From the NCBI RefSeq assembly GCF_046105845.1, contig NZ_CP151004.1: a stretch of DNA of 64,000 nucleotides; one strand, given 5' to 3'. The notes beneath the pieces were generated by a model. The model was given only the letters and a program-made list of their open reading frames with translations, ran no database searches and had not been told where the DNA came from. Within the stretch, counting starts at the first letter, position 1. Every line of letters begins with the position of its first letter. Source of the stretch: Escherichia coli. GTDB lineage: Bacteria > Pseudomonadota > Gammaproteobacteria > Enterobacterales > Enterobacteriaceae. Below are positions 60,341 to 60,446 of this stretch, in pieces. Made by a program: the position numbers and the translations under genes.

Positions 60341-60446
60341 TCAAGGTTATCTCCCGCAATGGTTTATCGTTGCGGGAGTTGCCTGAAGCGCTGGATGCTG
60401 TCGGAGCTTTCTCCACAGCCGGAGAAGGTGTAATTAGTTAGTCAGC

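Follow-up and report, generated by a model that had tools for sequence, protein, structure and literature searches.

How dam is expressed from a long operon of mixed functions is only partly understood, and the junction between damX and dam in Escherichia coli raises the question of what an inverted repeat lying there does: whether it ends transcripts, binds a protein as DNA, acts as a structure in the mRNA, or does nothing. Dam is a low-abundance enzyme whose levels must stay low and tightly set, as too little or too much of it raises mutation rates and disturbs replication timing. Its main promoters reportedly lie far upstream, as Lobner-Olesen and colleagues are said to have found in 1992. 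In the window analysed here, the whole 64,000-nt stretch of contig NZ_CP151004.1, the ORF list places hofQ, aroK, aroB, damX, dam, rpe, gph as well as trpS on the + strand at the window end. The damX gene (59054-60340, +), found among the ORFs and annotated in E. coli genomes, closes with a TAA stop codon (60338-60340, +; sequence, ORFs and E. coli annotation), and the dam coding sequence (ORFs and E. coli annotation) occupies 60447-61283 (+), with a spacer of 106 nt between the two. The MG1655 equivalents are 3516020-3517306(-) for damX and 3515077-3515913(-) for dam, and by coordinate arithmetic the repeat corresponds to NC_000913.3 3515982-3516009 on the minus strand. The dam gene has been described as a distal gene of the operon, with extra weak promoters inside damX, in or near its 3' part (PMC4981707), and the aroK-to-trpS operon is counted among 390 analysed operons (PMC5927463, S2 Table). 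A sigma-70-like match, TTGAAA-18-TACACT, occurs within damX at 60071-60100 (+), approximately 350 nt 5' of the dam ATG; it is the sole + strand match of this kind near dam and may be one of the reported intragenic dam promoters (PMC4981707).

The first-pass annotation had described an inverted repeat with a 9-bp stem at 60351-60378 (+), and both the coordinates and the stem are confirmed in the sequence. The arms ctcccgcaa (60351-60359) and ttgcgggag (60370-60378) form nine perfect pairs across a 10-nt spacer, starting 10 nt past the damX stop and ending 68 nt short of the dam ATG; RNA folding adds the pairs U60360·G60369 and G60361-C60368, giving 11 pairs and a 6-nt loop (5' arm 60351-60361, loop 60362-60367, 3' arm 60368-60378). 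The segment 60345-60385 folds at -23.1 kcal/mol (z = -6.6), and none of 200 shuffles folds as well. Comparison of loci and folding further identify the hairpin as the core of a lineage-specific 44-nt insert (60341-60384, +) that separates the damX stop from the dam leader; taken as a whole, the insert forms an imperfect palindrome, in which an outer helix (60341-60347 with 60381-60386) surrounds the hairpin, and the stacked outer and inner helices amount to about 17 pairs. When the entire 106-nt spacer is folded, two independent modules result, the hairpin with its outer helix and a separate structure in the dam 5' leader (60386-60446, +), which is the context of the hairpin and not part of it.

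With perfect hairpins defined by a stem of at least 9 bp and 3-12 nt of loop, the window contains 13 distinct ones, or 24 when nested variants are included, compared with about 3 in Markov shuffles, and the chance expectation of one such hairpin within the 106-nt spacer is approximately 0.005. Other long perfect hairpins in the window lie at 4989-5024 (a 15-pair stem), 41874-41899, 45673-45698, 48196-48225 and 63742-63765, the last of which is flanked by A5...T5, directly follows trpS and looks like a bidirectional terminator. Two overlapping reading frames were considered and rejected: a 78-aa ORF (60205-60441) that runs out of frame over damX and is treated as spurious, and a small ORF from the ATG at 60359 (24 aa, MVYRCGSCLKRWMLSELSPQPEKV), whose start is inside the stem and without a Shine-Dalgarno sequence and whose Citrobacter counterpart ends after 12 codons.

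Whether the repeat acts as RNA or as DNA can be judged from how its homologues vary. Pairs were counted from the stem ends by a script in 12 distinct sequences, a MAFFT alignment having split the 3' arm, and standard pairs occupy 140 of the 144 cells across these 12 variants and species. As its closing pair, E. coli has C-G, whereas the other Escherichia lineages have U-A and Citrobacter and Intestinirhabdus have G-C (four sequences for each kind of pair); at position 11 there is either G-C or a g·a mismatch, with U-A in one Citrobacter; and pairs 3, 5, 10 and 12 have undergone one-sided changes only, with pairing retained via G·U. One-sided changes mostly lead to G·U pairs, which the + strand alone can form, and in most Escherichia-type variants folding of the + strand is favoured over that of the - strand by 4-9 kcal/mol. 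The arms are separated by 4, 6, 13 or 15 nt among homologues, a variability that fits an RNA loop but not a protein that binds DNA as a dimer. When the window is set against Intestinirhabdus, moreover, the arms are identical at 19/19 positions and the insert flanks at 8/18 (Fisher p = 1.3e-4), and between the window and C. braakii the corresponding values are 17/19 and 6/18 (Fisher p = 6e-4); at four-fold degenerate sites of dam and damX, identity is just 0.51-0.62. The covariation, the G·U bias, the freedom of loop length and the conservation of the arms favour, at the level of sequence comparison, a sense-strand RNA structure under selection, with the evidence for selection coming from three clades only and hence from few independent compensatory events.

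The suggestion of an RNA element within the polycistronic transcript, one of two raised in the first-pass annotation, is thus supported by compensatory changes, the + strand G·U bias and arms that are conserved next to a free loop and flanks, whereas the other, a protein-binding palindrome, fares poorly given a spacing of 4-15 nt among homologues and a strand-specific asymmetry. The latter idea, in which a dimeric transcription factor would occupy two 9-bp half-sites in double-stranded DNA and control a promoter near dam, could draw on the perfect dyad symmetry in the window and on the weak dam promoters that have been placed within or close to the 3' part of damX (PMC4981707). It is nevertheless highly improbable, for the half-site spacing, which runs from 4 to 15 bp, is not fixed, the substitutions preserve G·U pairing on one strand only, with the + strand favoured by 4-9 kcal/mol, and no sigma-70-like promoter lies across the repeat or within 250 bp downstream.

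A structure in the mRNA could still act on transcription itself: by causing a pause that depends on the hairpin, or as a weak terminator of the U-less or Rho-assisted kind, it might reduce read-through into dam from the promoters upstream. Such attenuation would be in keeping with a stable GC-rich hairpin placed right after a stop codon, where RNA polymerase may uncouple from ribosomes, and with a low-abundance enzyme whose main promoters are said to lie far upstream, but the tail of the hairpin and the published transcript ends make it improbable. The bases after the stem are ttgcctgaagcg, with no T-run, and the tail UUGCCUGA has 3 U in 8, below the scan rule of at least 5 T in 8, and the terminator scan did not call the hairpin; nor is the 3' flank conserved among Escherichia species, where it reads GUUGCC, ACGGCU or ACUGCC. 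Curated Term-seq data from three growth conditions hold no above-threshold 3' end at MG1655 3515982-3516009(-) or 3515900-3516100(-) (PMC7815308), no Term-seq 3' end or Rho region is listed within 3515000-3516700 (PMC7815308), and the complete curated tables contain no Rho-termination region in 3515000-3517999 (Adams et al., 2021, PMC7815308). The supplements of TERMITe and SMRT-Cappable-seq likewise have nothing for damX or for the hairpin coordinates. In addition, the set of Dar and Sorek left out operons with internal terminators or substantial Rho termination, and the damX-dam operon was kept in it (PMC5927463), which also counts against attenuation. The only 3' end that these tables list there is a reproducible ORF-internal one in damX, at 3516762(-) or approximately window position 59598, and is classed as not Rho-dependent (PMC7815308).

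The first-pass opinion that the hairpin is probably not a terminator therefore stands, on the lack of a U-tract, of a scan call and of any listed Term-seq 3' end or Rho region; a transcript 3' end near the hairpin, for which the same annotation had looked to end mapping, is absent from the published Term-seq lists consulted. With intrinsic terminators the element shares a GC-rich stem of 9-11 pairs, a short loop and a position immediately after a gene, but it differs from them in having no U-tract and no in vivo 3' end and in that the downstream genes rely on read-through. Assignment to that class was thus rejected, the GC-rich 11-pair stem being the one terminator hallmark present.

The distribution of the insert bears on how much the operon could depend on it. 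When 80 Enterobacteriaceae loci were fetched via the Dam protein and their damX-dam spacers extracted, the 44-nt insert with the hairpin as its core was present in all Escherichia lineages sampled, and homologous hairpins were found in five Escherichia lineages, in seven Citrobacter loci (Citrobacter freundii group) and in Intestinirhabdus. The version of Intestinirhabdus alba is a perfect 12-pair stem with a 13-nt loop, and those of the Citrobacter freundii group are also longer-looped. Most of the 80 loci have neither insert nor hairpin, their damX stop lying 1-16 nt from the dam leader, and the hairpin-less taxa include Enterobacter, Klebsiella, Raoultella, Kosakonia, Leclercia, Lelliottia and several Citrobacter species. 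Since most genera with the same operon and leader lack it, the hairpin is not needed for operon function. Its origin would be a palindromic insertion of approximately 44-55 nt in the Escherichia / Citrobacter freundii / Intestinirhabdus lineage.

Other lineages carry something different at the same place. Salmonella arizonae has kept the 5' arm and an outer 6-pair stem but has other sequence in place of the inner part, and after it comes a second hairpin that is unrelated. Unrelated U-less hairpins with 10-14-pair stems occur at this junction in Salmonella arizonae (L005), Phytobacter (L015, L019 and L023), P. massiliensis (L027) and Kluyvera georgiana (L074), approximately 60-185 nt upstream of dam. 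All inserts of at least 30 nt at the junction fold as a single dominant stem-loop, and none has a U-tract. One reading of these sequences is that the junction has repeatedly acquired unrelated U-less hairpins, the types being those of Escherichia, Phytobacter, P. massiliensis and Kluyvera and the second one of Salmonella, and that selection has kept them as insulators or stabilisers that would tune the DamX:Dam ratio in certain lineages, the element making the translation and decay of damX independent of the structured dam leader. We regard this as an unlikely extension of the comparison.

Within E. coli, the locus is close to universal. The 251 nt around the hairpin are 100% identical in E. 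coli O157:H7 and other E. coli strains, this region is present in one copy each in 5425 of 5426 complete E. coli genomes, and the hairpin is kept in all 5425 genomes that have the locus. The window allele occurs unchanged in 2975 genomes, whereas 809 carry a loop variant and 323 the E2348/69 allele. Sampled polymorphisms (a single change each in the loop and in the flank, besides U·G to U-A and C-G to U·G) mostly fall in the loop or preserve the structure, yet two alleles weaken the stem: T60371C, which creates an A·C mismatch at pair 8 and whose exact E2348/69-type sequence is that of the 323 genomes, and A60377C, which creates a U·C mismatch at pair 2. Across alleles, the predicted stability of the 44-nt insert ranges from -18 to -25 kcal/mol.

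The main rival to a functional RNA structure is that the hairpin is a functionless remnant, a harmless palindromic insertion whose arms have remained complementary through mutational homogenisation of quasi-palindromes and not through selection; intrastrand template switching can yield compensatory changes in inverted repeats without selection. The absence of the hairpin from most genera, the stem-weakening alleles that segregate in E. coli, the replacement of the inner stem by other sequence in Salmonella arizonae, and the want of either a transcript 3' end or a differential decay signal in published data all agree with such a history. What speaks against it is the identity of the arms (19/19 and 17/19, next to flanks at 33-44% and four-fold sites at about 52-62%) and the leaning of one-sided changes towards sense-strand G·U pairs, given that template switching would produce strand-symmetric, perfect palindromes. 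On this balance, we consider a functionless remnant rather doubtful, though the most credible of the rivals.

The conservation of the arms invites another reading, in which an RNA-binding protein or an RNase specific for double strands (RNase III or ProQ-type binders) would recognise the hairpin and process the polycistronic mRNA at the damX-dam junction. The arms are conserved in primary sequence beyond the needs of pairing, and about 17 pairs stack when the outer helix is taken together with the inner one, but this helix is interrupted and is shorter than typical RNase III substrates, and no processing site or 3' end has been reported there. Recognition of this kind consequently appears distinctly unlikely.

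The reading we prefer, at a probability of roughly 0.45, is that the inverted repeat forms a non-terminating stem-loop in the sense-strand aroK-aroB-damX-dam transcript and acts as a minor exonuclease barrier or insulator, the structure, its strand bias, its conserved arms and its limited distribution being seen in the sequences and the molecular role proposed from them. As it starts 10 nt past the stop codon, the stem could probably remain folded during damX translation. It might then impede 3'-to-5' exonucleases on transcripts or decay intermediates whose ends lie past damX, or it might be a spacer that shields the conserved dam leader against ribosomes as they terminate on damX; in either role, it would be a passive structural module of small quantitative effect, and dispensable. 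A strong influence on dam expression, or on processing and stability, is rather disfavoured by the missing differential decay call and by the absence of the hairpin from most Enterobacteriaceae. As to decay, the operon is absent from the list of differentially decaying operons of Dar and Sorek (2018, list S3), which reflects a single growth condition (PMC5927463).

Several known systems offer points of comparison. U-less hairpins located 3' of a cistron are a documented protective class in E. coli operons, and of 34 stabilised upstream segments, 26 had such hairpins at their 3' ends (Dar and Sorek, 2018; PMC5927463). The malE-malF hairpin and the related "internal protective RNA structures" (PMC5927463) are likewise stable and U-less, lie just 3' of the upstream stop and belong to read-through mRNA. 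The damX-dam hairpin differs from elements of the malEF type in that no 3' end, such as marks a stabilised segment, is mapped at its foot and in that damX and dam are not reported to differ in stability or abundance by a step of 2-fold or more; furthermore, the malE-malF element is REP-derived, whereas the damX-dam hairpin is single-copy. The closest known kind is thus the U-less protective intercistronic stem-loop, which the anatomy fits by analogy, the damX-dam hairpin itself being uncharacterised. REP/BIME, ERIC/IRU and box C elements share with it the form of an imperfect palindrome inserted as a discrete piece of spacer and absent from related genera. A dispersed repeat (REP, BIME or ERIC) was nonetheless rejected, as 5425 of 5426 E. 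coli genomes have the sequence at exactly one place (blastn, word size 11, E up to 10), and it is not known to resemble the REP consensus. An Rfam family was also rejected: the best match, rdlD, scored 16 bits against a threshold of 50 bits (E = 3.1), and neither the window nor any of six related loci has a match to an Rfam family at or above its gathering score.

Two neighbouring features of dam came to light in the course of the comparison. The first is the dam leader (60386-60446, about 61 nt), which is almost invariant in the 80 loci, spanning more than 25 genera, whereas four-fold sites nearby are approximately 50% identical. Two mutually exclusive hairpins can be drawn in it, at 60397-60419 (GCUGU.GGAG with CUCCACAGC) or at 60407-60428 (CUUUCUCC with GGAGAAGG); neither has covariation support, RNAalifold gave no meaningful consensus, and the leader has no Rfam match. 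A 12-aa ORF starting in the leader was discarded, its frame being broken by 1-2-nt indels in Yokenella and Klebsiella. The dam gene lacks an obvious Shine-Dalgarno sequence at normal spacing, with a GGAG approximately 23 nt 5' of the ATG, and the leader is a candidate translational control element for dam.

The second feature is a terminator-like hairpin inside dam (60561-60586, +; about codons 39-47), with 11 pairs, a 4-nt loop and a T-rich tail (TTTTCTCGTT, 60587-60596). In a set of 62 distinct sequences from Enterobacteriaceae, its covariation falls on synonymous third positions, with GGG...GAC alternating with GGA...GAT and GTG...AAC with GTA...AAT. One of its pairs is G-C in 26 sequences, A-U in 22 and G-U in 7, and another is G-C in 26, A-U in 15, G-U in 4 and U-G in 3; double changes affect three pairs, across 42 cells, pairing holds in 91% of cells overall, and the observed covariation score was reached by none of 500 shuffles. 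A bias in GC3 does not explain this covariation, because the GC-rich Klebsiella and Raoultella use the A-U version. No Term-seq 3' end is listed for dam (Adams, 2021, PMC7815308). From its sequence, the dam-internal hairpin may be a translation-sensitive attenuator or a stability element. Its interest seems greater than that of the damX-dam hairpin.

In summary, the damX-dam hairpin is an ordinary, lineage-restricted mRNA stem-loop for which public data give no measurable effect. If it is true that it tunes the damX:dam ratio, it would be another case of operon reshaping by RNA structure, a useful though unsurprising one. Better leads for the regulation of dam seem to be offered by the invariant 61-nt dam leader and by the covarying hairpin inside dam.
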